DNA of 63,879 nt, filler included, from Stramenopiles sp. TOSAG23-6 (GCA_900128565.1; 3 parts of 3 records of this genome joined end to end with filler, not necessarily neighbours in it); one strand, 5' to 3'; shown: positions 375-60,500, counted from the whole stretch's first letter. Made by a program: numbers and translations. The notes: generated by a model not told the origin, from the sequence alone.

Positions 375-2399
375 TTTTTTTTTTTAAAAAAATTTTTTAC
401 CCTAAAAAAAAAAAAAAAAACAATTGAAGTTCCAAAATGTTTTTTTTTTTCCCTACATGATGATTTCAATTTTTTTTTTTTTTTTTTTTTTTTTTCGTAC
501 ACAATTTCATACCTAACAAAACCAAATCAATGTTTGAAATATTCTCCTATACTATATGTAAACATAACGAAAGAGTTCTACAACATAAGTGTGTTAAATG
601 TCCTATAGGCTCAACACGAAAAGCAGGTGATAATCCAACAGGTCAAAATACAAAATGTAAAAACGTTATATGTAAACAAAGAGAACATGTGATTAATCAT
701 GAATGTAAAAAGTGCAAAGAAGGATGTATGTTTTATTTATTTTTTTACAAAAAAATCGAATTTTTTTTTTTTATAAAAATTTTGTACCTAACGAGTTTTT
801 TCTTGAAATATTTTTCCAAAATACATGGGGTAGACCACTTGGTGATAAAGCGGTTGGTCCTGATACGTTTTGTTCCAAATTAAAATTTTGTAATTTAGAT
901 ATGTATGCTATACAAAATTTTGAATTCGATGATAATGATTCTCAAAATAGTGAAATAATTGAGACTTCATTTATTAAATATACACATTATGCTAAAGGTA
1001 CAGAGGATGGTGGTTCAATTTGTGTAAAATGTCCAAGACCAGATAAATCAGCAAAAAATGCTATTGTTACATGTACAACTGAATTTGATTCTAGAGTCTC
1101 TCAATGTCAACCTGGTCATTATATTGAAGGTGGTATTGAAGCTGATGCGTCGAATGATTCAAACAAGAATAAAAATGATTTGCATTTAGGTGCTCCAGAT
1201 GTTTGTTGGCCTTGTACACCTCCATCTGTATCCTCTGATGTTTGTCAAGAAGATGAATATGTATGTTTTATTTTTTTTTTTTACAAAAAAATCGAGTTTT
1301 TTTTTATAGTAAATTTTGTACCTAACGTTTTTTTTTTCAATTTCGAATTTATTTTTCCAAAATACATTTACCTCACTGCTCTGGAAAGGAACGCATGGAT
1401 GTTGGATGCTTACCATGTCCATCTATTTCACATGCGACACGTGTCAGTTGCTCAGGCAAACCTCCAAAACATTTTAATCAAAGGAAATCAAATACTATGT
1501 CTACAATGAATGTAATCCTATCTTCATGGGTTATTACTTGTGCAAAAAACTATCATAAATCTCAAGATGTATCAAAATGTATCAAAAATGAAACGATGAG
1601 TAGTGTAACTAATGATTCTATGGATGCAGCTATCATTGTAAATGACTCCAATACAAAAATATCAGACAAAAATACAAAAATATCAGACAAAAATACTGGG
1701 CAGAATACTACACAGGGTATGGATACTGAAAATTCATTTGTTGATCTACAAAGTGAAGCATGTATATTTTATTTTTTTTCAATTTCGAATTTATTTTTCG
1801 TACGAAATTTTGTACCTAACAAAAAACATTTTGAAATATTTTTCTAAAATACATTCACAAATGTTTTTGTTGAGCAACAAAGTGAAGCATTTGTAAATAT
1901 TTCTAGACGTTGGGAAATTGGGTATGAAAATATTAAAAAGTTAAGTGGCGATGAAGAAAATATTGTACGTTTTCAAAATTGAATTTTTTTTTTGAAATTA
2001 TTTTTTCATACGAAATTTTGTACCTAACAAAAAAACAAAAAAACAAAAAACAAATATTTTTTCACAAAACATCTTAAACTTGATGATTCTTTTTTCAGCA
2101 TGAAACAAACGATTGAAGAAGCTGCAGATTTACATAGAACATCAATGGAAAGAATTGTAGAATTAGAACAAATAATATTGAAAAAACAAATACATGTAAA
2201 TGAAGAGAATTCGTGTGATGCTATGCAAAAAGGACCGACATTGTTCCCACAATTCATAAATTCATTTTTGAATAAAGAGACAAAAGATTTTATAAATGAA
2301 ACTCCATTAAGTGTTTTAGCGGTTGCTATTGGAGTTGGTTTCAATGTAGCTTGGTCAATGACGAGTCTCTTATCTCTTGTCATGAAATCTTTCTGGTGA
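138..2399 (+). CDS. Cys-rich surface/membrane protein, 5'-partial, at least 6 exons
   Basis: Exons ~138-328, ~556-725, 827-1260, 1368-1761, 1855-1964, 2073-2399. Splicing restores the repeat register (CVKCPIGSTRKAGDNPTGQNTKC vs CKKCKEG|WGRPLGDKAVGPDTFC, both 23 aa) and a QSEAF repeat. Has a WC...WGYC motif (FN2-like, tentative) and a hydrophobic C-terminal segment. Confidence 0.75.
329..555 (+). other. Intron, family member; exact boundaries ambiguous
   Basis: Donors GTATGT at 329 or GTACGT at 333; TTCGTACACAATTTCATACCTAAC near 494-517; no AG near the 3' end, which falls at about 550-557. Confidence 0.55.
726..826 (+). other. GT-AT intron, 101 nt
   Basis: GGAT|GTATGT...TTTTGTACCTAAC...CCAAAATACAT|GG; removal restores the Cys repeat register. 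Confidence 0.85.
1261..1367 (+). other. GT-AT intron, 107 nt
   Basis: TAT|GTATGT...TTTTGTACCTAAC...CCAAAATACAT|TTA; phase 0 joins CQEDEY|LPHCSG. Confidence 0.8.
1762..1854 (+). other. GT-AT intron, 93 nt
   Basis: GCAT|GTATAT...TTCGTACGAAATTTTGTACCTAAC...CTAAAATACAT|TC; restores QSEAF, matching a second QSEAF downstream. Confidence 0.85.
1965..2072 (+). other. GT-AT intron, 108 nt
   Basis: ATT|GTACGT...TTTTGTACCTAAC...TTCACAAAACAT|CTT; phase 0; cannot be redrawn as AT-AC. Confidence 0.8.
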
Positions 2400-2520
2400 G
2401 TATTTTGTTAAAAGAGGATGAAAAATAAATTAAATTTAAATTTTTTTTTTTTTTTTTTTTTTAACAAAAAAATTTCATCGAGTTTACTACAGATTTATTG
2501 TATATAAAGGACCAGGTTCT

Positions 2521-3549: not shown

Positions 3550-3828
3550 GAGAAATGCGATGTACTGTAGGAAGAGATTCGCTGCTGTAATACTACAACA
3601 GAAGATACAGCATTACAAATAATGGTCAATTGTTGTCAAGTCCAATAAATATTTTTTTGAGGACGACAAGAAGCGAGAGACTAAAAAAAAATAGTTTTTT
3701 CAAAAATCTGGAACAAACCTGTCTCAACCTATAAAAATCAACAAAATTGGAGTCAGCCTCCGATTTGTAGTACTGAATAGAACGGGTTGTTGGAACAAAT
3801 AGTACTAGAAATCCGTGTATAATTCAAT

Positions 3829-6800
3829 ATGTCTTTACAAGCACAGCTCCAACAGCTACGTGCCCAGCGTGGTGGTGGAGCAGTGCAGTCTCGACTAAAT
3901 CGTAAGCGATGTTTTACAATACTTTATGAAAGTCCACGCGCCGCGGCGGATGTTTCAGTTGACGTTCTACACTCTCAAGCCATCAATGGACTACTCACTC
4001 TAACCCAGATGTGCCCTGCTTTAGCTGCCTTTGAGAATACACTTCTCGCCCCATCAACGACAACATTAGAACGTGGGCTTCTTGGTAAACAAGAGAACAA
4101 TGCTCTAGATAAGTCTATTTCGAGATTCTTGAGATTGATATCTCCATATATTTTATTACGTGCAGCGCACAAAGTCTTTGAATACCTACTTCGAGTGTAT
4201 GAAGTACATGAGTGGAATATTGACGCTATTATGGAGTGTATTCTCCCATTTCATCAGACTGATTTGTTTGGAAAGTTCGTATCAACACTGCAGATAACAG
4301 ATTCTTCAATGTGGCATTTTCTAAAAGGTGTGAAAAAGAATAAATCACAACTCATGGGTTCGGTTCTCATCGAACAATGTCGAAAAGATCCGAAAGGTTT
4401 ATTGGACTTTATTTGCCGTCTTCCAAGTCGTTCCATTGAATCAGGTGCTAGTTCTAAAACCGCTGCAACATTTACTTCTGTAGTTGTAGTGGGAGTTTTG
4501 CAGAAAGGAGTTCCAAGTGATAGCATTGTCCGCTGCGTTTTGTCATCTGCCCTTTCATTACTGAATACTTCACAAACAAAACAGGAACAACATTGCATCG
4601 CGAGTGCATATCTTATCATTACACAAGTTGCTACAAGTGTAGAGCTCTCCGAAAACGTATTTAATAATATTGTAGATACTATATCTTCTCTATTTATTGA
4701 ATCCAAGACAAATTTTGGTATGAATATGTACCATGATGCTTTACTCTGCTTATTCTGTATATTCGAAACTCAACGGCCTACATCATTTCCAAGTACTGCA
4801 GCATATCGAATACTTAATACGGCATCGTTGACTGCCCTTCGTCATGGAAATGGAGGTGATGATTTTGAATCTGGTATTGTGGCTATTCTTGAAGGTATTT
4901 TTACTAATGATGATGAAACGACATCATGTGCTGGTCAAAGTATATTTGTTACATTGTTACTTGAGTCTCTTGCATCATTACTTGTGACACAATATGACAA
5001 ATTTCGGTTTATTTTACAAGAATTTCTTGACCGAGGTAGAAATATTCTAAATGATTCTCATTCCTGGCAATCATTCTGTCATATTGTTGTTGAAAATACA
5101 ACTGATTTAATACAAAACTCAAAAAATTCAAATGATGATGATATTCTTAAAACATTGAAAAAAATTCTTCATTCGGTCGAAGTAAAATACCCTGAATCTT
5201 TGGATGCTGCCTTGAGTAAATTTTTACATATCCAGAATGATAAAAGGAATGAACAAACAGAAAAAATTGCAAATGTTATTCATAAAATGCTTTCTGGATC
5301 TAACCTACCTCTTCGACTCAGACCAGTTGTTTTAGATACAAATAGTTCAATGATGGGTAGTTGTAATAGTAAAAGAATTACGACAACTGTTGCCTTGGGA
5401 CTTCAACATCCTCTAGCAGCTGTTCGAATGAAAAGTGTCGAACATATTTCTACATCTTTATCGTCAATAGTAAAAACATGTGAATCCGACGAAACAGAGG
5501 ATAAGAAGCAACACGAAGCATTTTTATTCTTTCAAAATAATTTTGTACCACTTCTTAAAAACTGCCTCTTTGACGATGAAGCAGACGTTTCAATTAATGT
5601 ATTACCTCTTCTTTCAATGATTGCAGATCTATCGAAGTCAACACGGACAGTACCAATAGAGTTGAATAGACAAGCTACATTTGGTAAAGAAGAATTAGCT
5701 GAAATTTTATTTTCTCGTCTTTGTAAAATGTTGGATAAAAAAACATCATCAAAAACAAAATTACCGCCAATGATTGAAACAGAAAGTAAGACGTTTATAT
5801 GTGAAATTCTGCGACGTTTTCCTTTACCACTTCCTGAATCAGTGAGTGATGACGCAGCGTCGGGTCATGTAAGTACAGGTGGTTTTTGTTCTCTATTATT
5901 ACAACTATTTCCAAAAGTTGTAGATAAGGTTCATGAGATACATAAAGCAGCCATTGATGCTGCTGATCGTAGTGAACATTGGCTCTTTTCTGGAATCTCG
6001 AAATCAATCTCAAAGAAAGGTACAGCTGAAAAACTTCTTTCTGTACTCGCTCAGAATATTTGTAATAACAGTGAAAAACAAATCGAATCTTGGATGTGCA
6101 GAGGACAAGGCAAATGGATCTTTTTTCGTGCTGCATCTTTGGCTTTACAAGGTATGAAAGACAAAAAAAACAAAGAAAACAAAAAAAACAAAAAAAACAA
6201 AAATGTGATGCCATCTTTTATTGTATCTTTACTACCTCATTTATTTCTTGAGCTTTCTCTACTTGCGAATGAATGTACTCAAAAAATAGATCATTCAACA
6301 ACGATAAAAAAAGCAAAATCGCCTCCATATATTCGTGAACGTCGAATTCGTCCATCATCGTTTGAAAGCCAAGTTGCTGTAATGATAAAATTCATAGAAA
6401 TTGCTTTTAGTCACCTTCCCATGATCAATGGTGATACTAATTTGGATAGTACAGCGTATACAAATGCAATCAATACAAGTTCTGGTCTTATTAATGGAAG
6501 TCTTGATTTTGAAAGGTGGGTTTCGGATAAGACGGAGAATGTAGCACTTATTGTGAATATTGCTTCACTACGTGGTCTTCTTCGTTTACCTCAGCCAATG
6601 TTTGCCTGGTTTCAACCTATTCTTTGTGATCTGCTCGGTCTTCAATTTGGTTCTTGTGGTGTCTCAAAAGTTCTGTCTTTTTTATATTCTTCATTACAAT
6701 TTGACAATGCACCAGTTGCAATTGTCCAAGAACGTGCATTATTACTCAATGCTAAATTGATTGCAAATGATGAAGAATCAGCTAAATTGTCTACGTTACT

Positions 6801-10872: not shown

Positions 10873-10960
10873 AGTTGTATTGGTATTTGAAATAATAAAT
10901 TTTATAATAGAACATTAAAAAATCTATATATATAAAAATCTATATAATTTTTTTTTTGTC

Positions 10961-15325: not shown

Positions 15326-15435
15326 AAATGATATAATAGTATAGAGAGTTCTTTACTTTGAGTATGAAATTTGTTGCTTGTAATACGTCTGTAAAATAAA
15401 ATCAAAAACAATTATATATATATATATATTTATTT

Positions 15436-16920: not shown

Positions 16921-19900
16921 ATGACTGCGACTTCACTACATGAACGTTTAAGTATTATTGCTTCCCAGTTTGAGGAATTACGCAAACAAGACATTGCAAT
17001 ACGCGATCGTGAAATAGCTGAATTGAAAGAAAAGTTACAAACTTTGGAAAAAAAAGAAAGGGAAAATAAAGAATTACGGGAGGAGAACGTAAGTCTCAAG
17101 CAACAAGTGAGCCATTCAAATGTTGCAATAGAGAAAATGCTATCTACTCACAAAACTGATGTAACTAAACTACGGGATGAACTCCTTAATCTACGCTCGA
17201 AATTACAAGGTAATTCTATCAATGCTATTGATGTTGAGGGGGAACTAAAATCCGTTCAATCAAAGACAGAACAAGTTCTTGTATCTGTGAAAACACCCAT
17301 CGAAAAATTCATCAATACTGTAGAAAATACATGCCCCAATGCAAATATATCTAAAGGCGTGAATATAAATTATGCAAAACCTCGGGGGACATTCCAGGAA
17401 AAACCTATTCTTGAACATAAAGTTTCTGAACATGCAACAATCAATTCTAGTTACACAACAAAAGCATCTAGCAAAGCTGCAGAAGAATCGTTTGATAGAG
17501 AGTCAACCATCTTACCTAGTTCAAAGTCAAATGAAGTTGAAGACAAAAACGTGTCCAAAAATGAAACCGTTGAAGAAGATCATTCTCTAAATGTACAAAA
17601 ACAGGAAATGTTAATGTTTGCTGCAGAACAAGGTCTTGTATGTTTTTCAATTTTTTTCGTACGAAATTTTGTACCTAACGATATTTTTTTTTCGAGAAAT
17701 GTCAAAATATTTTCATCATGAATTTCAATTTCTTTTTCGTCGAAAATTTTTGTTCCTCACGAAAAAATTTCCATAATATTTTTACACAATACATGTCGGT
17801 GTTGTGAAAAAAATATTAGAACCAAAAATTGATACAGAAAATGAAGAGGACATGAAAGAGACGATAAACTTGGCTTTTAAACACGCATGTACGCTTTCAT
17901 CATTTAAAAAAAAAAAAAAAAAAAAAATATTTCGTACGAAATTTTGTACCTAACAAAAAAATTTAATTTTTTTTTGAAATATTTTTTTATAATACATGCA
18001 GTCATGGTCATACTGATGTCAGTTTGTATTTATTAAGCATTGGTGCATCTATTCAATCCACAAATGATTTTGGACAGAATGGACTTCATCTTGCTGCGGG
18101 GAGTGGTTCAAAAGATTTGGTAAAAAAATTTCTTGATCGAGGTATGTTTTATTTTTTTTCAATTTCAAATTTATTTTTTTCGTACGAAATTTCGTACCTA
18201 ACAAATTTTACAGTTTTTTTTTTCACAACACAGGGGCTGATATTGAAAGTAAAGATTGCGATGGCTTAACACCAATGGCATATGCAGCATTACACGATCA
18301 ATCGGATTGTTTAGAATTATTACTTTTTGCTGGTAGTGACACTGAAATACTTGTCTATCGCCCAAAATCAAAGGAAATAGCAAATATAAATATAGGAGAA
18401 CTTTCCAAATCTAAAAAAAATAAAAAAAATGAAAAAAATAAAAAAAATGAAAAAAATAAAAAAAATGAAAAAAATGAGATGATCGAAGAAGAAGATAGTA
18501 CAGCAAATGATATAGATGTTTCGGAACAGTCCCAACCAGTTCCAATTGTAGATGCATGTTTATTCCGTGAATCCAAAGCGTGTATTGAGGTACTACAGAA
18601 TAAGAAAATATTATTTTGGAATTCGTGTACTCGTGGAAATTTAACGTATAATATCGGCAATCATCATGCTGCATTGACACTGTTCAAAAAGGCGCTTCAG
18701 CTTACAATGGACAAAACATTAAATATTCCTGTCAAAGATATTTCTACGATTCATTATAACTGTGCTCGAGCAGCCATGCGCTTATCGAAACATGTTCTTG
18801 CTGTTACACACTGCGATCAAGCAATAGCTTTAAAAGAAACATTTTTCAAAGCGGTTAAACTTCGCGCAGAGAATTTCATGGAACTTCACGATTTTAAAAA
18901 AGCTGTCAAAGATTACGAAAATTTGCTACGGTTACTCCCTGGTGTAGGTTTGTCTGGTGCTTCTTCACCTCCAAGTGAATCTCGTAGCAAACATGCAAGT
19001 GTTTCACCTCCTAATATTCGGAATGGAAACTCCAAAGCAAAGTTAGAAGCTGCTTTGCAAAATGCAAAAGCATTGCAAAATTTAAGTCATTATTCACTAC
19101 TTAACATTAATGAAAAAGCAGATGCTGCAACCATTCGAAAAGCCTATCGGAAAATGTGTTTAAAATGGCATCCTGACAAAAATGGCGGCTCCGATGAAAC
19201 TAGATATAGATCTAGTTTAATGTTTCAAAGAATTAGTAAAGCATATGATGAGTTAAATGATTCTTATAAAAGAATAATGTACGATTTAGAACTCAAAAAA
19301 CAAAAATTGGAAACTGAAAAAAAATGTTTATATAGATCTGCATTTTCAAGGAATGGACTAAGTGGAAGTAAAACTTCAACACCAACAATATTTAGAAGTA
19401 GAAGACGATCGTCAACAGTGAAATCACCACAAAGTAGTATGAAACGTGATAGTAATACACCTGTTGCAAACAATCAAACTAAAAACACATTTTTTTCAAG
19501 TCCTGATTCTGATGCAAATATTAATTTAAAGACAGAAAAACGAACTCCAAAGCATCCAAGATTCAGCGCAACCAGAAGTTCAAGTAAACAATATATGAAA
19601 ACTCCAAAGACACCAAAGGATAGAAATAGTTCTTCATTTTCCACTGGGAAAACTCGGCGTTCATACGTTTCTTCTTCTCAAGCTTCTGAATTTCCTGGGC
19701 ATATTTCGTCCACATCAAACCACTCAGCTACAAATGGTCAATATGTAGGAAAGAGTCCATTAAGTGGTATGTACGACAGACTCAAACGTAAACAAGAGAC
19801 AAGTGAAAGTTTCTCAAATGAAGAATATAATTCAAAAAATGTTCCAATGAATTTACGATTTGATAGTGATAATGGGAATAATACCAGTAGTTCTAATTCA

Positions 19901-22686: not shown

Positions 22687-22894
22687 GTACGTTTTCATTT
22701 CAATTTCGAATTTATTTTTTTTTCGTACGAAATTTTGTACNNNNNNNNNNNNNNNNNNNNNNNNNNNNNNNNNNNNNNNNNNNNTTAATTAATTAANNNN
22801 NNNNNNNNNNNNNNNNNNNNNNNNNNNNNNNNNNNNNNNNTACGAAATTTTGTACCTAACGATTTTTTTTTTGAAATATTTTTCCAAAATACAT
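22687..22894 (+). other. GT...AT family intron sequence split by an assembly gap
   Basis: GTACGT...TTCGTACGAAATTTTGTAC | gap | TACGAAATTTTGTACCTAAC...CCAAAATACAT; both sides are phase 1. Confidence 0.6.
22741..22840. other. Assembly gap with artificial TTAATTAATTAA linker
   Basis: N runs flanking a six-frame stop linker. Confidence 0.95.
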
Positions 22895-25138
22895 CACCTG
22901 CTGACTTTCACGGAAGCCCTCATTCATTTTCAACACCACAACAACCACCACGTTCTACATTTTTAAACTTTGATAATGAAGTTGGTGAAAGTATTGCAGA
23001 TTCATTGAAGGATATTTCTCCGGTTGTTTTACCTAATGAATGTCAAACTCCAATGCACAAAAAAATGATGTCTTCTACGAAATATACAGATAATGATAAT
23101 AATAATAATGATTTAATGAATACTATTACATCAATAAATGATGATGTTACAAGTGATGTAACATTAAAAGATGATTGTGAAGAATTTGTACGACGTGCAA
23201 AGTCAATACTTCTTTTAGCAGAACATTCCCAAGGTAAAAAATCTGGTAATTTAGAACCAGACGATTTAAATAAACTAGCAAAACAATTAAAGAATCTTGT
23301 AGTTGAGAGACTTGCTGACTCGGAACCTGTATTTCGTGTTGCAAACGAGTTAAAACTAATGACAAGAGATTTTGGGTTTTCTCTGCAATGTAGGTTCCCA
23401 TTACTTACTTGGAATTTATTTCATTTTCTGAAGAATTTCGTACCTAACAAATTTCAAATTTGGCATATTTTTTTACAATGTAGGTGCGACTGATATGGAA
23501 GCATTACTATACAACAGTCTTTGGAGAGAAAATAAAGATTCAATAGATAAAAAAGATTCGAATAATGAATCTGTATTGTGTCAAGCAAGGCAAATTGGTC
23601 TTCAAAAACTTATTGAAAAATCTCGTAGCACAAGTGAAGTGATAACTGCAATTTCGGATGTCTCATTTAATAGTACTACTTCACTTGGAAGTGATAATAA
23701 ATCACTAAATCTGATAACATCAATAAGCAACAATAGTTATACGCATAGCATTGCTGATGGTGGTATGGATAATGGATCACCAGCTGTAGTACATGCACAC
23801 TCTTTATTAAATCAAGGTATAATTTCAATAGAAGAATTTGAAGAATTGGTAGAGAAAGATAGGAAATTTAGGTTGAAAGAAACAGTTGATATTGTTCAAC
23901 AACAACAGACTAATAGAATAACACCAGCAGAATTCAAAGAACTTATTGAAGCTCATAAAAACACAACAAATGAAGTACCTATGCACATACTTGAACAAAA
24001 GGAATCAGTGAATACTAAAGAGACCACTAAAGATTTTTCATCAATGAGTGCTTCATTTATGAATAACTCCGATAGTGATTCTATTTCAATGACTCCACCT
24101 TCAATCAAAAATGATGGTACAGTAATTCTTCATAATCCTGCATTGGTTGTATCGAATGCAACACTTTCTAAACTCAGAAGAGTTTTGAAACGAAAACTGA
24201 AATTAATTAAGCAGCGAATTAAAGCAAAAATCATGAGACAAAGTAGAAAAAAACAAACTAAAGAATCATTGCGACACACATCAACAGTGGAAACGACCAA
24301 AACTTCACCTGAAAGTGAATGCTTCACTTTATTTGATGAAATACAAAAACATCAACTTCGAGCATTATTAGATAATCAAAAGTTTTTTGAATTATCTTGT
24401 CAAAATATAGATTATTATCGTGGTGATTATTTGAATTTACGAGGAGATGAAACTGTAAAACAAACCTTAGTACGTGGTGGATCTATGCCACATGAAACTA
24501 TATTCTTTAGTTCCGTCATTGAACGAGTTCAGCCACAGTCGTGGTGGAGCAATGGAAGAACACAAAGAATTCTTGTTATAACTGAGGCTGCTGTGTATGA
24601 ATGTACTACATCTACTGGACAATCATCTATATCTGCTGCTGTTTGGGGAAGTATTACAAAATCTCCAAGAAAATCTCTACTGGAAAGAACACCAAGTAAA
24701 TTATTTGCACCTAACTCTGATTCCTTACCTCAAATTGGATCACTTTTATTATCAAGTAATAAGACAAAGCTTAGCACCACAACATCTATATTATCTGGAA
24801 ATAGTAGTAGCAGTTCTAGTAGTTGTCCACAAACTTTTATGACAATAGGAAAAGTTATAAAGAGATTTCCATTAGAAAGTATAGGTTGTATATCTCTAAG
24901 TAAACTTATAGTTGGTGGAGCGTTCTGTCTAATCATACCTAGTGAATATGATGTTCTTTTTGACACTGTGAGACGAACAGAAATCGTATCTTGGATGATT
25001 CATTTATACGAAATCCGTACGGGTCAGCCATTGATATGTAATTTTATGGAAAGCATGTTATTAACATTGGAAGACGGGCAGACAATGACTACTTATTTCG
25101 ATGAAACAGCTGGGACTGTACGAATGTTAAAATTATAA
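22895..25138 (+). CDS. Protein with C-terminal myosin-I TH1-like domain (exons 22895-23389, 23484-25138)
   Basis: ETIFFSSVIER...QRILVITEAAVY...KRFPLESIGCISLS...FCLIIPSEYDVLF...RTEIV...LY...G..L...F matches the Myosin_TH1 pattern; no motor domain seen. Confidence 0.65.
23390..23483 (+). other. GT-AG intron, degenerate family member, 94 nt
   Basis: CAAT|GTAGGT...AATTTCGTACCTAAC...TTACAATGTAG|GT; phase 1 joins the two ORFs. Confidence 0.7.
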
Positions 25139-35335: not shown

Positions 35336-35337
35336 AA

Positions 35338-37525: not shown

Positions 37526-38619
37526 TTACAACTGTTTAGACTTTTTTGAATAAACATTTTCACCCTTTTCATCATGGATGCCATTATTATTTTGTCCAGA
37601 TGAAAGAGATTTTATTGTGTTATTCGTAGATAAACTTCTTTTTTTTCCCAAAATTTGGTCAACTGAAGAATTACTAGAATGAGTGGGTACAATATTTAAT
37701 ATATCTGCACCTTTCATTGGACCTCCAGATGTATTCATATTATGTGTTGCTTCTAGTCCTTTGAAGTATTTCACAGTTTTAACCCGTAACTCTAACGTTG
37801 CATCTTCGTCACAAACAACGCAAGCTCGTGGATGCATTTGAAGCATTGAAACAGTCCACATGTATTTTGGAAAAATATTTCAAAAAAAATCGTTAGGTAC
37901 ACAATTTCGTACGAAAAATAAATTCGAAATTGAAAAAAAAATAAAACATACATGTGACTAATACCTTCCTCAATGCATTTATACATCGCATACGCTTTGT
38001 GTGCACCTGTTATAATAATCAATACTTCGCGTGAATCCATTACAGTACCAACGCCTACTGTAAGCGCCATTTTGGGTACTTTCGAAATGTCATTGTCAAA
38101 AAACCTAGAATTGGCAACTATTGTGTCATAAGCTAATGTTTTCACACGTGTACGTGATGTCAAGCTTGAACCCGGTTCATTGAATGCAATATGCCCATCT
38201 GGCCCAATACCACCCAAGAATAATTCAATACCCCCGTATTGAAATATTTTTTCTTCATATAAACGGCACTCTTCGACCAAATCATTTGCGTTGCCATTCA
38301 GCATGTGAACGTTGTTTGGATCAATGTCCACGTGTTTGAATAAGTTATTCCACATAAAAGCATGGTATGATTCTGGATGATCTTCGGCGATACCGACGTA
38401 TTCATCCATATTGAATGTTGCAACATATTTGAAGCTTAATTCCCCCGCGTTATAAAAATTTACAAGTTGTTTGTATACTGGGATGGGAGATGAGCCAGTT
38501 GGCAACCCAAGAACAAAAAGATTATTGGCACTTGGTGCGTACTCTGTGATACGTTTTTGAACATATTTCGCAACCCAAAGTCCAGCATCATCCTTAGATT
38601 CCTTGATAATAATACGCAT
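37526..38619 (-). CDS. GNPDA: Glucosamine-6-phosphate deaminase, 2 exons
   Basis: [34 protein letters not shown]; exons 38619-37952 and 37859-37526 restore conserved IEEG.SHMWTVS..Q.HP...[20 protein letters not shown]. Confidence 0.95.
37860..37951 (-). other. GT-AT intron, 92 nt, containing no AG dinucleotide
   Basis: Minus strand CACAT|GTATGT...TTCGTACGAAATTGTGTACCTAAC...CCAAAATACAT|GTGG; exact removal is needed for HMWTVS. Confidence 0.92.
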
Positions 38620-43777: not shown

Positions 43778-45285
43778 ATGATTAGAGCACTTCATCGCTG
43801 GTTGCATGCACCTGTATGTAGCTTTTCACTTTCGTTATTCCGTATTTTATTTGGTATTGTCATGGCAATATCGAGTATTAAGCATTTTAATCGATTAGAC
43901 GAAGTCCGTTCTTCATTCCGACTTTACTATTCTGGCTTTTCATGGATTCCCAAGTTTGCATTCTCAAATATGAAACTTCAGGTCATTGCTATGGGAGTTG
44001 CATCTATTTTAATTTCATTTGGTCATAAAGCTATGTACCGATTCGCTGTGTTAGTTGCGCTTATTTTGTACTCGTTATTGTTTTTCAGTGATGCTACCTA
44101 TTACAACAATCACTATTATCTCATTATACTTTTCTTGTTGTTTTTTTCGGTAACTGATGCAAATACATATGGAATTCAGGATATAATCAACGAATTGATA
44201 AGTTGGTGTACGTTTTCAAAATATCATAGTCAAACAATTAGGAAAGTGCAACGCTGGCAAGTTGTTTTGTTCAAGGTTCAGATTTCACTTGTCTATTTTT
44301 TTGCAGGCATTTCAAAACTCAATTCTGAATGGCTTCGAGGATACCCAGTAATGAAGTTAAGCATAGATTGTTATCGAAAAGCGTTTATTGATGTTATTGG
44401 ATTTCGTGCATCGCATGAGGATGTAATTATTCCACTAATATTTACATATTTTATATGCTATGGTGGTTTGATATTTGACATTGTTATAGGATTCATTTTG
44501 ATGAGTTCTTCCTCAGCTACAAGAAAGAAAGGTCTACAATTTGCAGCTTTGTTCCATATCATGAATTATTTTATGTTTGATATTGGTGTATTTCCTTTTT
44601 TAATGCTATGTACATCAGTGTTATTTATAGATTGTAGAAATATTGAAAGAGACTCTTTTTCAGCTGATAATAATTCACAAGATTTTATTGACGATACAAA
44701 AAGTAGAAAGTCAATGAAAGATTTTGTTGACGATACAAAACGTAGAAAGTCAAAGAAAGATTTTGTTGACGATACAAAAAGTAGAAAGTCAAAGATAATT
44801 ACGTTTATTCTTTTGATATTCTTTAGTATACAATTTTGTTTACCATTACGACATTACTGGTATCAATACAAATATGCTGATTATATAATTCACAATTTTC
44901 CAATAGACGCTTATGACATAGATTCATTAAACCCTAACCCTGAAACCCCTAACCCTTCGGAAACAGATTTCGATACTATCTCATTAAAGCAGGTTCGTGT
45001 TGGATGGACAGGATTAGGAGAGCTGTTTGCATGGCGTATGATGCTTACATCCAAAATCTGTAATGGACAGTTTCATGTGAAAATACGGGGAGGAAAACAT
45101 CAAAGAATAAAAATTGTGGACACTATTTTAAATACTGATCTACTATATATCACTCAAAGACAAGCTTTTCGAGTATTCCAATATCCTCATTATATCGTAC
45201 AAGCAGCTCAACATACAAAAGTATTGATTGATAATGAAATAGATACATTTACGTCAAAAATCTCCGCGGTGGGGTCATCATCTCG
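43778..45285 (+). CDS. HTTM-domain / vitamin K-dependent gamma-carboxylase-like protein, 3'-partial
   Basis: SL..FRILFG, YYNNHYYL, VYFFAGISKLNSEWLRG, FHIMN..MF.IG.FP, WT...ELFAWRMML; runs into the gap. Confidence 0.82.
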
Positions 45286-45385
45286 NNNNNNNNNNNNNNN
45301 NNNNNNNNNNNNNNNNNNNNNNNNNNNNNTTAATTAATTAANNNNNNNNNNNNNNNNNNNNNNNNNNNNNNNNNNNNNNNNNNNN
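45286..45385. other. Assembly gap with artificial TTAATTAATTAA linker
   Basis: N runs flanking a six-frame stop linker. Confidence 0.95.
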
Positions 45386-45476
45386 TTTCAAAAAAAAATC
45401 TAAAAAAATTGTTAGGTACAAAATTTCGTACGAAAAAAAAAATTTAAATTTTCAAAAAAAAAAAAAAAAAACATAC
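45386..45476 (-). other. Family intron (5' part), 3' end lost in the gap
   Basis: Minus strand GAT|GTATGT...TTCGTACGAAATTTTGTACCTAAC...TTGAAA. Confidence 0.75.
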
Positions 45477-50057: not shown

Positions 50058-50618
50058 CAAAACTCGAAATTTTGAGCTTGGATAACAACAAACTAACTGA
50101 TTCAATTTTCATCAATGATAACCTGTAAAAAAAATAAATTTCAATTATTGACTATTATAATTAGTATAATACTACTATTCACATTGAATATTCTTTTTTA
50201 TTATGTACAAATGTTTATTAAAAAAAAAGAATAAAAACAAATATAATAAAATTATTTGTTTACTATTTCCAGTCGAGTCCCCAAACACATGATTTTCAAG
50301 AATTCGTGTTTATTTTTGTCGGTTAAAATTTGATATTTTTGTCCGGCGTTTTTCCATCAGACAAAAGATATACACTACATTACGCCAACAAGTCTTCTAA
50401 CTTCTGTAATCAAATCTCTAATACGTACAATTATAAAAGTTATAAGCAGCCTCTACAAAAAATATACCCTCTAAATCGGTACGAAAAGTAGCCGCTTCAA
50501 CAAAAACCGCTCAGAAATAGCATCTGAAGGTATCGTATCCAGAATCCAGATTCATTCCAGATTCTTTGTTTTGTTCTTTTTTTCCACCACAAAATAAAGC
50601 CAGGTATCGTAAGGAACA

Positions 50619-51953: not shown

Positions 51954-52261
51954 TTGAGTTATTCTGTTTATCTCTTTTAATATTTATAACTTTGAATCTA
52001 TTGAATTAAGATTTGATAGATAAATAAAAAGCCAATTTTTCAATTCCCAAGTCATGCCATTTCAATCATTATATATAATATATCCAGGATCCTTGATTAT
52101 TATAGTAATGATTAAAAATTAAAAATTGCTTTCAAAAGTTGTTTCTTTGTTACCCGGTAACAATAAGAATATGAAACGGTCAAAAACTGATTGACACACA
52201 AACATGTGTCCAACAAACAAGTCAAATTGTATCACAACAAATTAAACTGTACTACTTTCAA

Positions 52262-54328
52262 ATGTCCCTTATATTTCAAATACAAAAATTATTGAATCGC
52301 CAATGTCGCTTTTCATCTTCCTGTGGTCAAATTTTAGCTTCTCTCAACAGTTCAAAATTAGAAATCAGAAAAACACAGGCACCGAAACCAAAACCAACAA
52401 ACATCAACTTGGAATTCGGAAAAGTTTTCACAGATCACATGTTAGAAATCGATTGGAATGCTGATACAGGATGGCATACCCCACTCATTAAACCATATGG
52501 TGATATGGCGATATCACCAGCTGCGAGTGCACTACATTATGGTTTACAATGTTTTGAGGGAATGAAAGCTTACATCGATCCTTCAGGGAACATTCGTCTG
52601 TTTCGTCCTGAGAAAAATATGACAAGATTGAGTACTTCAATGAAACGATTAAATATGCCATCATTTGATGAATCAGAGTTTCTTGAATGCATCAAAGAAC
52701 TTTTAAGAGTTGATAAAGACTGGATCCCTAAAGAAAAAGGATTTTCCTTATATATTAGACCAACAGCTATATCTTTGCACTGTATGTTTTTTTCATCATT
52801 TTTTTCATCATTTTTTTTTCATAGAGAATTTCATACCTAACAAATTTAAAATTTTTTTTGTATCATTTTTTTTCATTGAGAATTTCATACCTAACAAAGT
52901 TCAAATTGTACAATATTATTTTCAATATATGTACGCTTGGTGTCACAACAGTGCGTTTATATTATTGATTTCAAATATATTCTGCTAATATTTTGTAACA
53001 CTTGGAATTGTTTTGTATTCAAAACAAAATTGAAATTAAATTTTACATATTTTTGTTTCGTACCTAACAAAACAATTCATGTTTTAGAATATTCTTTCAC
53101 AATACACTCTTTACATACAAAACTGTTTTGTATAATGTGCCCAGTAGGACCATATTTTACTGATGGAATAAAACCAGTGCACTTGCTAGCTGATGAACGA
53201 AATGTGCGTGCTTGGCCTGGTGGAACTGGTGATGTAAAAATTGGGGGTAATTATGCTTGTATGTTTTTTATGTTGATGTCAACATCATTTAAAAAAAAAA
53301 ATTTTCATTTAAATTTTTTTTTTAATATATGGATTTTTATATTGTATTATAATATACAACTAATGAATTATATACTATGAAAATATTTTGTCACTAGTAA
53401 AGCCACTATTTCACCACAAACGAAAGCAACTGAAGATGGATATTCGCAAATACTTTGGTTATTTGGTGATGATCATCAAGTGACTGAAGTGGGTGTAATG
53501 TACGTTTTTTTTTTTTTTTCAAGTTTTTTTTTTGTAGTATATTTTGTACCTAACTAAAAAAAAAATAAAAAATAAAAAAATCACAATACATGAATTTTTT
53601 TGTTTTATGGGAAAAAAAAGATGGTTCAGGAAAAGAGTTAATTACAGCACCTTTAGATGGTACCATGTAAGTTTTAAACCCTAACCCTAATATAATTTCA
53701 TATGTTTTTGTATAGAAAATTTTTGTACCCTTTTCTTTAAAAAAAAACAAAAAAAACAAAAAAATCTCATATAAACATTCCAAAATAAAACATATTTTTT
53801 TCAATATATATTACCGGGTGTCACCAGAAGTTCAGTGATTGAACTTGCACGCTCTATAGGTGACTTTGACGTCACTGAACGAATATTTAATATGGCAGAA
53901 TTAACTGAAGCGATAAACGATGATCGTGTCATTGAAGCGTTTGGTTGTGGTACTGCAGCTGTTGTTAGTCCAGTCAAAGCGATCACTTATAAAGATAAAA
54001 TGTTTTCAATACCTACAGGAGATGATGAAACTATGGGACACTTTTCTAAATTTGTTTTAGAAAAGTTAACTGCAATTCAATATGTAAGTCAAGTATTCTG
54101 AATTTTCAAATGTGTTTTTTTTTTTTTTTGAAAATATTTTTTGAAATGTATTATTTTTTGAAATGTATTATTTACCAAATATTATTTTTTAATAGAAAAT
54201 CAAAAGGTTTCGTGTACTTCTTTGTATCCACTGTATAATATTATTTACCAAATATTTTTTTTAAATCTTGTTTATCAGTATATGGGAATGATAAAGGTCC
54301 TGATGGTTGGTCTGTTGTTGTCAAGTAA
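52262..54328 (+). CDS. BCAT: Branched-chain amino acid aminotransferase, 7 exons
   Basis: Exons 52262-52781, 52931-52950, 53108-53258, 53403-53499, 53592-53666, 53810-54083, 54284-54328 give [85 protein letters not shown]...W. Confidence 0.93.
52782..52930 (+). other. GT-AT intron, 149 nt
   Basis: CACT|GTATGT...GAGAATTTCATACCTAAC (two copies)...TTCAATATAT|GT. Confidence 0.85.
52951..53107 (+). other. GT-AC intron, 157 nt
   Basis: ACA|GTGCGT...TTTCGTACCTAAC...TTCACAATACAC|TCT; gives the expected LGV-to-PVGPY spacing. Confidence 0.75.
53259..53402 (+). other. Canonical GT-AG intron, 144 nt
   Basis: GCTT|GTATGT...CAACTAAT...TAAAG|CC; restores NYASTISPQ; lacks GTACCTAAC. Confidence 0.8.
53500..53591 (+). 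other. GT-AT intron, 92 nt
   Basis: GTAAT|GTACGT...TTTTGTACCTAAC...TCACAATACAT|GAAT; restores TEVGVMNFF. Confidence 0.9.
53667..53809 (+). other. GT-AT intron, 143 nt
   Basis: ACCAT|GTAAGT...TTTTGTACCC...TTCAATATAT|ATTA; restores DGTILPGVTR. Confidence 0.88.
54084..54283 (+). other. GT-AT intron, 200 nt
   Basis: TAT|GTAAGT...TCAGTATAT|GGG; restores IQYG...W; the nearby CAG is out of frame. Confidence 0.8.
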
Positions 54329-54553
54329 ACATTTAGTATAGAATTCATAAAAAATGGTAGATATGAAGTTATTCTCAAAATAAAAGTAGCAAGTGAATAT
54401 TTTCTTTGAACACGAAATATTTTTTTTTATAAAGTTTGACAAAAACATCGAAAAAAATGCAAAAAAAATGAAAAATTGCGAAAAGTTTGTGTGTGACTTG
54501 ACAAGTGTTTCCTTAATTTAATAGTACCTCTTATTATATATTGCATAAATAGA

Positions 54554-57500
54554 ATGACAAAATTATCTATATTACTTTTCATGCTTTTTTCGTATATGAT
54601 GAATGCAACTAGTACTGTGAGTCCGAATATATTTTTCGTTCATACGAGTAAAGAGACTGTACCATCTGATATTATTCTCTGTAGTGTTGAAAGTGCATTA
54701 GTTCAATACCCAAATGCCTCTGTTCATATTTTCTCAAACTCATGGGAATTTGATGCGTTTCATCACCTTATAGGTAATAAAGTAACTCATAGTCAACGCA
54801 TTCAGGTCCGTCGATTCAAGTATGAAATTGAATTTCTTGGAACGCCATTTTCAGATTGGTTTGCTTCAGGGCTTTGGCGTGATGGTTTTTTGGAGCATAA
54901 TTTATCAGACGCTCTTCGCTTATCAATATTATACAAGTATGGTGGTTCATACTTTGATACAGACATATTACATGTACGTAGTTTATCATTATTTAGTAAT
55001 GTGCTCACTTTGGAAACAAACGTTAATATAAATAATGCTGTATTACGTTTTTCAAAAGGACATTGGTTTGTTTGGGAACTCATGACAAAATTTGTACAAC
55101 GTCACTCAGGACAAAAATGGGGAAGTGGAGGTCCAAAATTAGTGACTTATTTATGGAAAGAACATCGTCATATCATTGATAATACAAAAGATGACGAATG
55201 GGTTACTCTTCCACCTGATGCATTTTATCCTATTTCATTTATGTTTTCATTATGAATGTCGAAATTTAAAATTTTCAATTATGACTGTCGAAATTTGAAA
55301 TTTCGTTTTTTTATTTTACATTTCGTACCTAACAAATTTTGAATGTCCATTTCTTTTTTTACATTACATGGGATGCAACAAATGTTTTATTTGTACAACC
55401 AAAATCATATAATGATGAAAGAAAAAAAATTGATAAAGAAAAAAAAAATAATTTAAATAATTTAAATAATTTAAATGATGATAATGATGAATTGATTGCG
55501 TTTGAAAAATATGAAATAATAATGAAATCTACATATGGCTTACATTTGTGGAACAGTTTAACACATGGCCAGTTTCCATATACAAAAGTCTCTTCATTGT
55601 TAGGTATTGTAATGAAACAGGTTTGTCCGAAAACATCCTATACTTTTTTTTCTCAACAAATTCGAAATTCGTCAAGTACAAAATTTTCAATGAAAAAAAT
55701 AAAACAATTTGAATATAAAACAAAAATTATTGAACCTGTTGTTGGAAAACAATACGTTGGTGCTGTCATTAATGTATTAATTAAAGTAGTTCAAATATTA
55801 AAAATCGATGAAGAAAGAAATTCAAAAAATTCAAAAAAGGAAAATAATCAAAAGAATCAAAAGAATACTACTCTTTGCATTTCAGTGGGTACTGAGTACA
55901 CGAAATGCATACCTTTGTCGCAAAATCAACAAACACAAATGATTTCTTTACAAATATATGATTTGTTACCGGGTCACCATGTTTGTATAGTTTGGGTTGA
56001 GACTGAAAAAAAAATTATTCTAAGTGAAAAAAGCTTTGCTGCATTTAATTTTAATTTTCATTCTGTTGCAAAAAATAGAATAAATACAATAAAAAATGAT
56101 ACAATAAAAAATGATACAATAAACAATGATACAATAAACAATGATACAATAAAAAATAATACACTAAATACAAGATCTATTCAATATCATAAAAAGTATG
56201 AATTATGTCGATTTTTATCATTATGTGATTCATTAGGCTCAACACATTCATATTTATATTGGAATGAAAGTGGAAATGAATTTAGTTCTAGAATATTAGA
56301 TGTACGTTATTGTATATCATTTTTTAATATCATTTTTTAACATCATTTATTTTCAATGTAAATATATTGTTTATATTGTTTATATTGTTTATATCTAACA
56401 AAATATAATGTTTCAAATACTTTCCAAATATATATAAAACATGTCAAACATGTAATCATCTATGTCATATAGAAGAAACATATAAACATAATAAAGATGA
56501 ATTAGAATCTTTTGCTAATCGTCAACGTCGGATTCGATCTTTTCATAAATTAGAAATTGAAAATTTTATGTCTTTATCCATACCTAGTAACAATTGGCAA
56601 TGTGAACGTATCATTCAAAATCTAGATACAAAATCGTCTACTAAAAAAATAGAGACAAAAAATGAAATTGAAATAAATCTTTTTTTTATCGGTTATATTG
56701 ATGATTTATCATGTACAACACCAAAAATAATAACTGCAATAGTACCTCAAAATGTAACATCGACAACGAATTTATTAGGTAATAAAATTAATACAGATTC
56801 AGGACATCTAAATGATTATAATTGTAATGATTTTGATACTTGTGCTAATGAAATTCCAAAATATACTATGCAAAACAGGAAAGAATTTGAGTATTATATA
56901 CGAAATAATGCTTTTTTTAATCAAAAAGATCAAAACAATAATTTTAAATTTTGTGCAGATGTTTGGATGGTAAGTCACTCTGAATTGATTGATGTTTTTA
57001 ATATATTTGAATTAAGAGAAATGTTGACCACCACCTTCAATACTACCAATATTGATACTGAAAGTCAACAACAACGAAAAAAGACGAAATTTGGTAAAAA
57101 AAAAATCAGTTCAGTGGCAACATTTGAATTTGATTTGTGGAAAAGTATTGAGTATGTTTTTATCTTTTATTTTTTTTGTTTTTATCTTTTATTTTCGAGT
57201 ATTGTATAGTATGTATATCATTCATGTGTTTTTTCAAATGTTTCAAATATATTTCACAATAAAACATTGATACAACATTTGATACACATAAAAAAAGACA
57301 AATGGCAGATCTAGTCACACAAAATATTTTTGAGATATTAACCGACAATGGAATTTTATGTATTTTACATGAACATCCAACTATTATACATTGGATTGAA
57401 ACTGTCATTTTAGATCATTCATTTGTTATTGTAAAAGACATTGATGATGAATCAGTGATGAAATGTTCTGTTTTAGTAAATTCACTATATGATGAAAGCT

Positions 57501-60500
57501 CAGCTCAATGGGGGGTCACAATGAAGAAAATATTGAATACACGAAATCCTTTATTTTCTACAACGTTTATAAAAAAAACAAAACAAACAAAACAGACAAA
57601 ACAAACAAAAATTGGTCGTTATCATAAACGATTGAAAATACATAATCATCAAAATATTATTTTGAATACTACTACAACAATACCCGATACAAAAAATAAT
57701 GAAACTCAAGTTTTTGTAATCAATCTTGATCGACGACCTGACAGATGGATTGAAATGTCAAATAAATTACATGAAAATAATTTTAGTATGAAAAATGTCA
57801 TACGAATTTCTGCAGTAGATGGACATTTGCTCGATATGACGTCATCACGAATTCAAAAACTGTTTCAATCTCAAAATAAACATAATAAAAGATGGACTGC
57901 GCCCTATGGAGGACATAAAATGAATCGAGGTGCAATTGGTTGTGCTTTGAGTCACTATATATTATGGAATACATTGTCTTCTATTTCACCTCAACTACCA
58001 AATATTGGTACAGATAGTTTTTGGTTAGTTTTGGAAGATGATATTTATTTTTCACCACAATTTTCATCTCGTTGGAATGAAATTATAGAAAAGGTGAAAA
58101 ATGATTCGTCTTGGGGACTTTTGTATTTAGGGTTTACAGACTATCATGTAAGTCTTTTTTAGTATGAATTTTAATACGTTTTTTAGTATGAATTTTAATA
58201 CGTTTTTTAGTATGAATTTTAATTTTTGTTTTTGATACAATGTTTATTTATTATTTTTACAATTTTGACTTTTTGTTTTTGTTTATTTGAAATTGTTTTT
58301 CATGTACAATTTCATACCTAACACATTTCAAATTTAATATATATATTAATTATTACATGGAAAATCGAATATTTATGGTGATACAAATGCGTATCATAAC
58401 TTTCCATATATAAAACAATTTAGTGATGTTCCAAGAAGTACTGGCGGTGGAACATTTGGATATGCGATACGTCAAAACGCTGCTGAAATGTTAGTTCAAT
58501 CTGCGAACAAGAATGTAAGTTTTATAATTTACATGTTTTATTATTTCAAAAAAAAAAATAGTATTATTATGATTTAAAAAAATAGAATAGTATATTATTA
58601 TTATTTCAAACAATATAGAATAGTATATATATATATTCTAAAAAACAACAAATTTGACATATTCTTTTTACCTACATGGGATAATAGATCCAATTGATTT
58701 TTTTATGATTGAACATTTCGGTGATATAAAATCTTATATTTGTACTCCTCCACTAGTAACTGCAGATTGGATACTTCAAAAACCAAATACTGATAGCGAT
58801 ATTTCAAGCAATGATGGTGGTGAAGCACAAAAAAAGGAGAATCCTACATCTACAAAAACAAATGAGTCTATCAAAATCAACATAGAGAAAAGAAAAAATA
58901 CACGAAATATTCAACTTGAAATGCAATATTTAGAAACTTTATTAGACTTTATACCACCTGAAAATGAAATTGCTGTAGCATTTCAATATACAAATTATCA
59001 AAATGAACAATTGAATAATTTTCCAATACAATTAAAAATTAAACAACCACAAAATGGTGATTATACAGGGATAAATTTTATTGTCAAGGCAGATGTAGGT
59101 TTTGAATTTCAAATTTATTTTTTGAATACGATATTTCATACATATATTTTTTTTAATATTTTCTACATTTTCAATGTTTACTTTGATTTTTTTGAATACG
59201 ATATTTTGTTTGTTTTGTACAAAATAATATACCAAACAAAAAAAATACACGAAATATCCCATCAATATACATATAATAATAAAAAATCAAGAGGAATCTT
59301 TTCAATATTTACCGAGAAATTGGCAGGAATTGGCTAGAGTTTGCATTGGTGTTGAAAGTCCATTTTTTGCTCCATCTCGTAGCAAATTTTTGGGATGTAG
59401 GTTTATTTTTTTTTTGTTGAATTTCAATTTTTTTGTTTTTCCTTTGAAAATTCTATGAAATTTTATTATGATGTTTTGTTCTAAATTTCAAATTTTTGGA
59501 ATATTTTCAACTGTATTTGTACAAAACTGAATTTACCTGTTTTAACTGTCACTAGCATGCCATATGGTCGATCAATGGTTCGATTTTGGATGCAATTAGA
59601 ATTTGAAGATGTGGTACGTTTGTACAATTAAATTTATTAATTTTATTTTTTTTTGTCATGAAAAATTTGTACCTAACAAAAAAAAATTGACTGTAAAATA
59701 TTTTTCCAAAATGTATAATAACGTATATGCAGCTACAATTCAACAAGTTTCGGCTATATCTTCTGTATATGTTCATGTGACACCACTCCACAATCATCGT
59801 TTGGCTGTAGAAGTAGATACAATACAAATTCGAAATTCGTTTGGTACAAAAGTACTAGCAAAGAACCCTAACCCTATTGAATCGAAATCGAATTTGAGTA
59901 GTATAAAACAAAAAAAAAAGGAAAAAACATCTTCAAATATTTTTATGAATAAGACATGTCTTGATGGGTTACCTGAAAAGTTGCAGTATAGTTACATTCT
60001 AGCAAAACAAAAATTTCAAACACAAGAAAACCCTAACCCTAGTTTTGCAATTGGCATTTTAATGAATAGAGGTGAAAAATCATTTAGAGATGCACTGGAG
60101 TCTTGGTATATCTCTGGATTATTAGATATGGCATCACAACGCTTATTATTCATACAAGAATACAATGGAAAATATGATACGCGTCTTTTACATTTACATA
60201 GACCTTTTCATGAATATAAAATTACTGTTGTATCTGTTGACAAACCTGAAAATGCTACACAAATTGGAATTTCTGGTGGAATTTTGAAATTATTAAAGAC
60301 TGTTGATTTGAGTATTGACTCATTTTTATTTTTAGAAGAAGATTGGATAATACACCCAATTGTATCAAATAATTTGGTACAAAAACAAATTGAAACTTCG
60401 TTACAATTGTTACAAAGTGGTAAAAGTGACGTCATTCGGCTTCGCAATAGAGAATTACCGGGTAACCCACATTGTTCCTCTGTGTGGAAAGGATACGAAA

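Follow-up and report, generated by a model that had tools for sequence, protein, structure and literature searches.

Whether the introns of a nuclear genome can dispense, for the most part, with a terminal AG is the question raised by a stretch of 63,879 nucleotides (nt) from Stramenopiles sp. TOSAG23-6 (GCA_900128565.1), hereafter referred to, at its full length, as the window. Few signals of eukaryotic gene expression are as conserved as the terminal AG, which is explained structurally by the pairing of the last G of the intron with the first one. A first-pass annotation of the window had counted 20 AT, one AC, and three AG ends among 24 introns with an assignable 3' end, and had taken GT-AT as the dominant class.

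Terminal Dinucleotides of the Introns

The introns were located on the basis of breaks in the open frames, of the repeated motif TACCTAAC, and of homology, and the list was rebuilt with scripts. The catalogue comprises 22 complete introns plus three cut by contig ends; 24 of them have an assignable 3' end, and the rebuilt list returns the same tally, i.e., 20 introns ending in AT, a single one ending in AC (52951-53107), and three ending in AG (18142-18233, 23390-23483, and 53259-53402). In the AT-ending introns the final four bases are mostly ACAT or ATAT, and, against the YAG end expected for U2-type introns, an AG is found in 3/24 introns only. The dinucleotide AT represents 12% of the intron dinucleotides, to be compared with the 19 of the 22 complete introns that terminate with it. 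The non-AG ends of most introns are strongly supported by the protein evidence described below.

Intron Lengths Fixed by Conserved Proteins

In nine of the introns devoid of a terminal AG, the removed length is fixed by homology or by repeat periodicity; these are the GNPDA intron, five of the six BCAT introns, two introns of an ankyrin gene, and one of a glycosyltransferase gene. The lengths and the lack of usable AG sites are read directly from DNA and proteins, and from them we infer splicing itself. All the features given hereafter lie on the plus strand unless otherwise stated. The GNPDA intron (37860-37951, minus strand) is 92 nt long. Exon 1 ends with ...EEGISHM, and the junction HM|WTVS, on which the first-pass annotation had relied, is unbroken and invariant in 7/7 of the homologues printed, no AG being present in the 92 nt removed. 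The closest GNPDA relatives in the protein search are 79% identical.

The BCAT gene was judged by means of a whole-gene model (52262-54331; seven exons, six introns removed, 393 residues), local scoring of the junctions being too noisy with the tiny exon that the gene contains. The alignment of this model with its closest relative, P0001, gives 307 identities over 393 aligned positions; the sole gap is of one residue and falls in the N-terminal presequence, none being found at the six junctions, so that the BCAT junctions do demand the removed lengths, as previously maintained. Intron 1 (52782-52930, 149 nt, GT-AT) contains two TACCTAAC motifs. Intron 2 (52951-53107) runs from GTGCGT to CACAATACAC and is a GT-AC intron whose borders cannot be slid, that is, shifted together without changing the mRNA. 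Intron 3 (53259-53402) is a canonical GT-AG intron, and intron 4 (53500-53591, 92 nt, GT-AT) is a copy of the repeat family described below. Intron 5 (53667-53809, GTAAGT...CAATATAT) can be read as GT-AT or, at -2, as AT-AT, and the junction DGTI|LPGVTR that it leaves agrees with P0001; for intron 6 (54084-54283, GTAAGT...CAGTATAT), an AG lying 5 nt upstream is out of frame. Exon 2 (52931-52950), of just 20 nt, encodes (C)TLGVTT, in agreement with the conserved xTLGV of the homologues. This very short exon is preceded by a GT-AT intron and followed by a GT-AC one. By comparison, the public BCAT model P0002 (eukprot:GSMAST32.ASY1.ANO1.1695.1) is identical at 244 of 317 positions, and its four gaps add up to 25 residues; it is garbled at 5/6 of the BCAT junctions and reads through the last intron, which is the outcome expected if GT-AG borders are enforced.

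When its three introns are removed, the ankyrin gene displays four repeats at an exact 33-residue period, so that the earlier claim that this gene fixes the removed length is upheld across all three. The introns are 17638-17794 (157 nt, GT-AT), the family copy 17889-17997 (109 nt, GT-AT, with no internal AG), and 18142-18233, a family copy ending in AG and preceded by an exon that ends in AG too. In the glycosyltransferase gene, the removal of 131 nt (55239-55369) restores the FYPISW motif and scores 6067 when summed over 63 spanning homologues, versus 5623-5779 for the three readings with a GT donor; the segment is similar to the family copies, its first base being T instead of G.

The twelve introns that are not fixed by homology are those starting at 726, 1261, 1762, 1965, 22687, 33269 (minus strand), 57152, 58148, 58515, 59614, 333, and 23390. 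Their assigned ends leave both flanking frames open in 12/12 cases (the chance being 1/3 each), bearing in mind that the ends of 333 and 23390 were picked by frame and that the family copies are related by descent, so that neither the frame counts nor the end counts are independent. Four GT-AT family introns follow one another near the beginning of the window: 726-826 (101 nt, with 87 open codons upstream and 226 downstream), 1261-1367 (107 nt), 1762-1854 (93 nt, GTATAT...ACAT), and 1965-2072 (108 nt, which can be slid to -1 and 0 only), the last two being without an internal AG. The family intron 33176-33269 (minus strand, 94 nt, GT-AT) and the family intron 59614-59716 (103 nt, GTACGT...AAATGTAT, no slide possible) are free of internal AG as well. 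The GT-AT intron 57152-57267 (116 nt) permits no slide and is flanked by 247 open codons upstream and 297 downstream; it is followed by 58148-58358 (211 nt, GTAAGT...TTACAT) and 58515-58677 (163 nt, GTAAGT...CTACAT). The intron of a Cys-rich gene (333-550, GT...CTCCTAT) has a less certain 3' end, chosen by frame: the end aligned with the family, at 557, hits a stop, and the in-frame TAT at 550 leaves 110 codons open on each side.

The GT-AG intron 23390-23483 (GTAGGT...CAATGTAG) is 94 nt long, and only the removal of 94 nt joins both open frames. A 10-nt direct repeat, CAATGTAGGT, is present at both of its borders (23386-23395 and 23476-23485), with a period of 90 nt against an intron length of 94 nt; these repeats may be the trace of an origin by duplication or insertion. 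A reading of this intron as the 90 nt comprised between the repeats was discarded, as it yields a stop codon. Two further segments are likely introns, 56302-56440 (GTACGT..., with no AG inside) and 59397-59560 (GTAGGT...); their 3' ends are not assignable, and both were kept out of every count.

As to whether an AG acceptor could serve instead, no AG at all exists in 7 of the 19 non-AG introns. Keeping the same donor, no in-frame AG occurs within 60 nt for the GNPDA intron, BCAT introns 2 and 4, and the introns at 17889 and 55239. At the four homology-fixed introns left, in-frame AGs are found 18-54 nt into the next exon, and their use would delete 6-18 conserved residues. At the 33269 intron, which belongs to a non-conserved gene, an in-frame AG lies 3 nt downstream of the AT end and may serve instead of it. 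Judging from these sequences, no AG acceptor could yield the conserved proteins at the nine homology-fixed introns.

Splice Signals

The position table was built on 21 introns. Their 5' site is GTAWGTTTT (+1 G in 20/21, +2 T in 21/21, +3 A in 20/21, +5 G in 20/21, and +6 T in 20/21); it matches the GTRWGT of U2-type introns, with TTT extending over positions +7 to +9. The RTATCCTT of U12-type introns is not recognizable, no intron of the 21 having the ATCC core at +3 to +6. Of the 23 occurrences of TACCTAAC in the window, 21 are within introns and on the coding strand, and in 14 introns this motif lies 32-45 nt from the 3' end, as a putative branch motif. At the 3' end, an extended motif, TTTYCAMAATACAT, can be recognized (n = 21: -7 A 19, -5 T 17, -4 A 19, -3 Y 20, and -2 A 21), and the last base is T in 18 introns, G in two, and C in one. 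Introns not belonging to the family and having a GTAAGT 5' site (BCAT 5, BCAT 6, and 58515) likewise end in AT.

No polypyrimidine tract was found, the median pyrimidine fraction being 0.55 at -23 to -4 versus 0.58 in whole introns, and the tails of several introns are A-rich. YAT triplets closer to TACCTAAC are passed over, as is the case of a TAT located 15 nt upstream of the end in most family copies; in GNPDA, the use of this TAT would insert five residues into an invariant block. This implies that the site is not chosen as the first YAT after the branch, and its specificity is probably supplied by the 10-nt 3' motif. On the whole, the introns look spliceosomal and yeast-like.

The possibility that the intron ends are brought together by RNA structure was also considered. 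No stable fold uniting them emerged from 13 introns compared with shuffled sequences (z from -2.71 to +1.72, with one value below -2). Bases +1 to +3 (GUA) are able to pair with -5 to -3 (UAC); such a pairing was rejected, as +4 and -6 do not covary, pairing in 0/6 introns with C at +4 and in 1/4 with A.

A Family of Introner-like Repeats

Ten introns, distributed in six genes, can be aligned from the first G to the last T, their flanks being unrelated. The median pairwise identity of the ten copies is 0.68 and the highest 0.88, versus 0.55 and 0.60, respectively, in shuffled controls. Copies of one short introner-like repeat make up about half of the introns, and, as with introners, many similar copies are found, each of which constitutes one intron in unrelated genes. 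This family is a feature that the first-pass annotation overlooked. Palindromic cores, such as TTTCGTACGAAA, are common to the copies, as are inverted ends of 4-6 nt (GTAT...ATAC). Two members depart from the rule, since the copy at 18142 ends in AG and a relative, BCAT intron 2, ends in AC. In 14 of the 22 introns the final two bases of the exon are the same as the final two of the intron (AT/AT in 13 cases and AG/AG in one). A 20-nt motif of the family had 0 matches in metagenome contigs and 0 in viral contigs.

Three contigs make up the window, with two 100-nt linkers between them (N44-TTAATTAATTAA-N44, at 22741-22840 and 45286-45385), and 4/6 contig ends fall inside family copies (those at 1, 22740, 22841, and 45386), which suggests that the family is probably abundant in the genome and breaks its assembly. 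At 1-137, where the contig begins, only the 3' part of a family intron is left (with TACCTAAC at 67, the end CACAATACAT, and an open frame from 138), and the 5' part of another one, cut by a contig end, at 45386-45476 (minus strand, GTATGT...TACCTAAC). The family intron 22687-22894 (GT...ACAT, ending with ...AAAATACAT) is split by the first linker, flanked by N on both sides. Its two halves agree in phase (phase 1 on both sides), and for this reason contigs 1 and 2 may truly adjoin.

The Register of the Introns

The removed length being established, the exact register is deduced from the way in which the borders can slide. In the GT register, GT is found at the 5' end of 21/22 introns and AT at the 3' end of 19/22. 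The register shifted to -2 gives 5' AT in 13/22 and AC in about 15, with 3' ends that are a mixture of AC, AT, GT, CT, and AA. The slide sets permit AT-AC at 726, 1261, 1762, 17889, 33269, 37951, 53500, 58148, and 58515, and make it impossible at nine other introns (1965, 17638, 22687, 52782, 52951, 53667, 54084, 57152, and 59614). Among the latter are the four (1965, 17638, 52782, and 59614) that had already been said to be unable to slide to AT-AC, in agreement with the slide sets. GT-AT appears, therefore, to be the best single register, although short of proof.

Several observations weigh against GT-AT. Homology sets the removed length, not the register, wherever the codon at the junction is not conserved. 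Before 13 of the 22 introns the final two bases of the exon are AT (before four they are TT and before five others, the first base after the intron being G in 12), and in those 13 a shift of 2 nt to AT-AC gives the same mRNA. The GNPDA intron, as an example, can be read as AC-AT, CA-TA, AT-AC, TG-CA, GT-AT, TA-TG, or AT-GT. The segment 55239-55369 has a T at the G+1 of the family, and its best-fitting length permits TT-AT, TT-CA, AT-AC, or CA-TA, never a GT, and among these AT-AC alone is of a known type; the segment may represent an AT-AC register, a defective copy, or a sequence error. If BCAT intron 1 is shifted 2 nt upstream, the residue at the junction changes from H to Q, which the two closest relatives also have, and the same shift at the 17638 intron replaces L by H, a slightly better match to the repeat consensus; in both cases both residues are found among the homologues, and the hints are not decisive. 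Moreover, the family copies inherit their ends by descent, and the 20 AT ends are not, for this reason, 20 independent events. Lastly, the AT-AC pair is known to be tolerated, and G+1 is not known to work with U-1 in any U2-type system. The first-pass claim that GT...AT is the only reading fitting all the introns has to be softened: GT-AT is the single register that suits nearly all of them, 55239-55369 having no GT in its best-fitting register, and 13 introns, a point that the annotation overlooked, can be read as AT-AC equally well.

Favored Explanation and Alternatives

On balance, the introns are probably major (U2)-type spliceosomal introns in which the reading of the last base has been relaxed or switched. 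This last base is mostly U, in a few cases G, and once C, the base at -2 being always A; hence, G+1, the branch site, and A-2 would be kept, and only the recognition of the last base would have changed. In budding yeast, a strong 5' site and a strong branch site define the intron, and the same might happen here. In yeast structures, A-2 pairs with the branch adenosine and the last base pairs with G+1. The second step of splicing would accept A-U, and less often A-G or A-C, at the site marked by the extended motif. The introner-like repeat would have spread through the genes in sense orientation, bringing the splice signals along. The AT at the end of the exon, which parallels the AG|GT...AG|G arrangement, might be due to a target-site duplication by the introner, to a changed U1 contact at exon -1, or to both. 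A fuller scheme, standing at about an even chance, would comprise, in an abundant and uncultured marine stramenopile lineage, a major spliceosome with YAU as its default 3' site, set by the motif of about 10 nt and not by polypyrimidine tract and AG, an AU|GUAWGU...AYAU|G arrangement replacing AG|GURAGU...YAG|G, a co-evolved step-2 pairing, and the spread of the introner. Such a co-evolved change in the pairing between G+1 and the last base would be implied, and perhaps a change in U1. Any such change in the spliceosome is deduced from the observed motifs and family, and an altered spliceosome is, in these terms, a plausible reading.

A mixed or shifted register, with AT-AC wherever the exon ends in AT (13/22) and GT-AT, AT-AT, or GT-AC elsewhere (an "RT-AN" rule), is a rather unlikely alternative. 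It could rely on the nine introns with AT-AC slides, on the AT at exon -2/-1 in 13/22, on the 55239 segment, which fits AT-AC and not GT-AT, and on the AT|GT...AC|AT overlap, which gives an identical mRNA either way; besides, A+1 with C-1 is a known compatible pair. It is, however, impossible at nine introns, it leaves 5' AT at 13/22 only and the 3' ends mixed, and it would place GTAWGT at +3 to +8, a position not known to be used by any 5' site. Far less credit can be given to a massive expansion of U12-type introns, as in Physarum, with GT-AT, AT-AC, and AT-AT tolerated. TACCTAAC resembles the branch consensus TCCTTAAC at 6/8 positions, and the 5' site is extended by TTT at +7 to +9; however, in U12-type introns TCCTTAAC lies roughly 10-20 nt from the 3' end, versus 32-45 nt for TACCTAAC. 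The U12 core ATCC at +3 to +6 is found in 0/21 introns (+5 being G in 20 and +6 being T in 20), GTAAGT 5' sites occur with AT ends too, and a minor class would have to become the majority. In favor of the same idea, GT-AT accounts for 17% of 1,014 non-canonical U12-type introns of Physarum, according to the accessible part of the source (10.1101/2020.10.12.336362). The missing ATCC core and a branch motif too far from the 3' end make a minor-spliceosome origin unlikely.

It is very improbable that the segments are not spliced at all, being transposons recently inserted into dying genes, artefacts of the assembly, or sequences removed at the DNA level. The assembly is, in fact, fragmented, with contig breaks within the repeat, one copy (55239-55369) is devoid of the first G, and the introns are deduced here from DNA and protein comparison. 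Nevertheless, 21/21 of the in-gene copies bearing TACCTAAC are sense-oriented, the frames on both sides of each assigned intron are open, conserved proteins are exactly restored at nine junctions, and both the 5' site and the branch motif belong to the classical signals of the spliceosome. Ordinary GT-AG splicing at nearby AGs, with small indels in the proteins, is scarcely credible. It would suit the 33269 intron, with its in-frame AG 3 nt beyond the AT end, and it is what the public gene model P0002 assumes; yet 7/19 introns are AG-free, at the homology-fixed introns in-frame AGs are missing within 60 nt or would delete conserved blocks, the forced model P0002 drops 25 residues in four gaps, and the nine homology-fixed introns already contradict it. 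The reading that we prefer remains that of major-type introns with a changed recognition of the last base.

Comparison with Known Systems

In the literature, searches concerning GT-AT introns, introners/MAST-3, Incisomonas introns, and non-canonical stramenopile introns yielded no paper reporting a GT-AT majority. The first-pass statement that such a majority is not known in the few lineages rich in non-canonical introns stands to this extent and has to be tempered on the side of the 3' end, since a prevalence of 3' AT, with AG at the 5' end, is described for Fritillaria in the accessible text of PMC13326754. According to the same text, AT is the most frequent 3' end in F. pellucida and F. borealis (44% and 34%), AC being the second; at the 5' end AG prevails (AG/AC, AG/AT), and the termini vary widely; the U2AF subunits are duplicated, with an altered binding, and were shown to bind the new ends (PMC13326754). 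The likeness lies in the fact that most introns fall outside GT/AG, which the authors, in the portion available, link to introner or transposon activity (PMC13326754). The window differs in its strict GTAWGT 5' site, its strong branch motif, the absence of a polypyrimidine tract, and a host that is a protist and not an animal. As regards related organisms, the accessible part of the single-cell genome paper on these stramenopiles mentions splice sites only in its annotation methods (PMC5778133), and a 2026 preprint on single-cell genomes of marine protists gives the intron fraction only.

The U2 introns of budding yeast have the form GTATGT ... TACTAAC ... YAG. The introns of the window resemble them in the GTATGT-like 5' site, in the near-invariant branch motif, in the weak or absent polypyrimidine tract, and in a 3' site located tens of nt past the branch. 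They differ in the last base, which is U instead of G, in the extra C of the branch motif (TACCTAAC), and in the 3' consensus of about 10 nt, upstream of which YATs are skipped, so that simple scanning is not applicable.

With the introners of Micromonas, Aureococcus, and dinoflagellates, as far as the accessible texts describe them, the family shares many similar short copies, every one of which makes up a single intron in unrelated genes, and assembly breaks in the copies; short direct border repeats and short inverted ends (GTAT...ATAC) may be common to both as well (PMC12130899, PMC7789003). It differs in that its copies end in AT; the survey reported in the accessible part of PMC12130899 accepts 3' AG or AC and drops the families with unfamiliar sites unless supported by RNA.

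In Physarum polycephalum, the pairs GT-AT, AT-AC, and AT-AT do occur; in the portion of the source available, they form a small minority, whose 5' site is [GA]TATC[CT]TT and whose branch motif and 3' end are 10-12 nt apart (10.1101/2020.10.12.336362). The introns of the window have, by contrast, GT at +5/+6 and a branch motif 32-45 nt away. Repeated introns and non-canonical borders with direct repeats are also reported, in the accessible texts, for Amoebophrya and euglenids, whose introns have no consistent termini and carry inverted repeats of 8-20 nt or stable hairpins (PMC7789003, PMC4770533). Here, on the contrary, the introns have regular termini and fold no more stably than shuffled sequences do.

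Genomes rich in non-canonical, transposon-derived introns are already known; what is unusual here is that a strict 5' site and a strict branch site occur together with an AU end. If true, this would represent, in a free-living protist, a natural experiment on the pairing between G+1 and the last base, and on the choice of the 3' site without U2AF-type signals. Gene finders assuming GT-AG would mis-build genes in this lineage, as the 25 residues lost in P0002 exemplify, and the GT-AG-based gene predictions for this organism are probably unreliable. As a consequence, the number of genes counted in these ecologically important organisms may be too low, and the functions deduced for them wrong or too few. 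Families of this kind would also be overlooked by introner surveys in which unfamiliar splice sites are filtered out, such as the one described in the accessible part of PMC12130899.

Genes and Other Features of the Window

The window is AT-rich (GC content of 25-41% in 2-kb bins) and gene-dense, with long open frames in the standard code. The genes recognized through Pfam are eukaryotic and comprise a U3 snoRNP10/BP28 protein, LRR proteins, an ankyrin-TPR-DnaJ protein, a myosin TH1 tail, an Sm/LSM protein, a DEAD-box helicase, GNPDA, a mitochondrial carrier, a vitamin-K-type carboxylase, RCC1, and glycosyltransferases. In the protein search, the named best matches belong to oomycetes and other stramenopiles; together with the name of the BCAT model P0002 ("GSMAST32..."), they point to a marine stramenopile with a compact, AT-rich nuclear genome.

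A search of the window with Rfam for small nuclear RNAs gave 0 matches at the gathering threshold and a single irrelevant one at E <= 1, and no U11, U12, U4atac, or U6atac was detected either. No transcript-derived protein of this organism spanning a junction was found in the protein searches. Two metatranscriptome runs contain 6% of the sequence words of 52000-61900, a small share that counts as evidence neither of expression nor of habitat.

Genes encoding HTTM and vitamin-K-dependent gamma-carboxylase domains are uncommon outside animals; in the window, the open frame 43778-45283 contains an HTTM domain and the lumenal domain of a vitamin-K-dependent gamma-carboxylase (Pfam E-values of 5.7e-46 and 5e-9). 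Tandem "AAAAATAC" repeats at 32530-32650 (minus strand) encode a low-complexity KNT/KYK stretch in the point where two overlapping open frames meet, which may represent either an intron or a frameshift. Finally, telomere-like motifs made of two CCCTAA/TTAGGG units are present in BCAT intron 5 (53675-53690), in an intergenic region at about 31990, and in a coding one at about 32625-32640.

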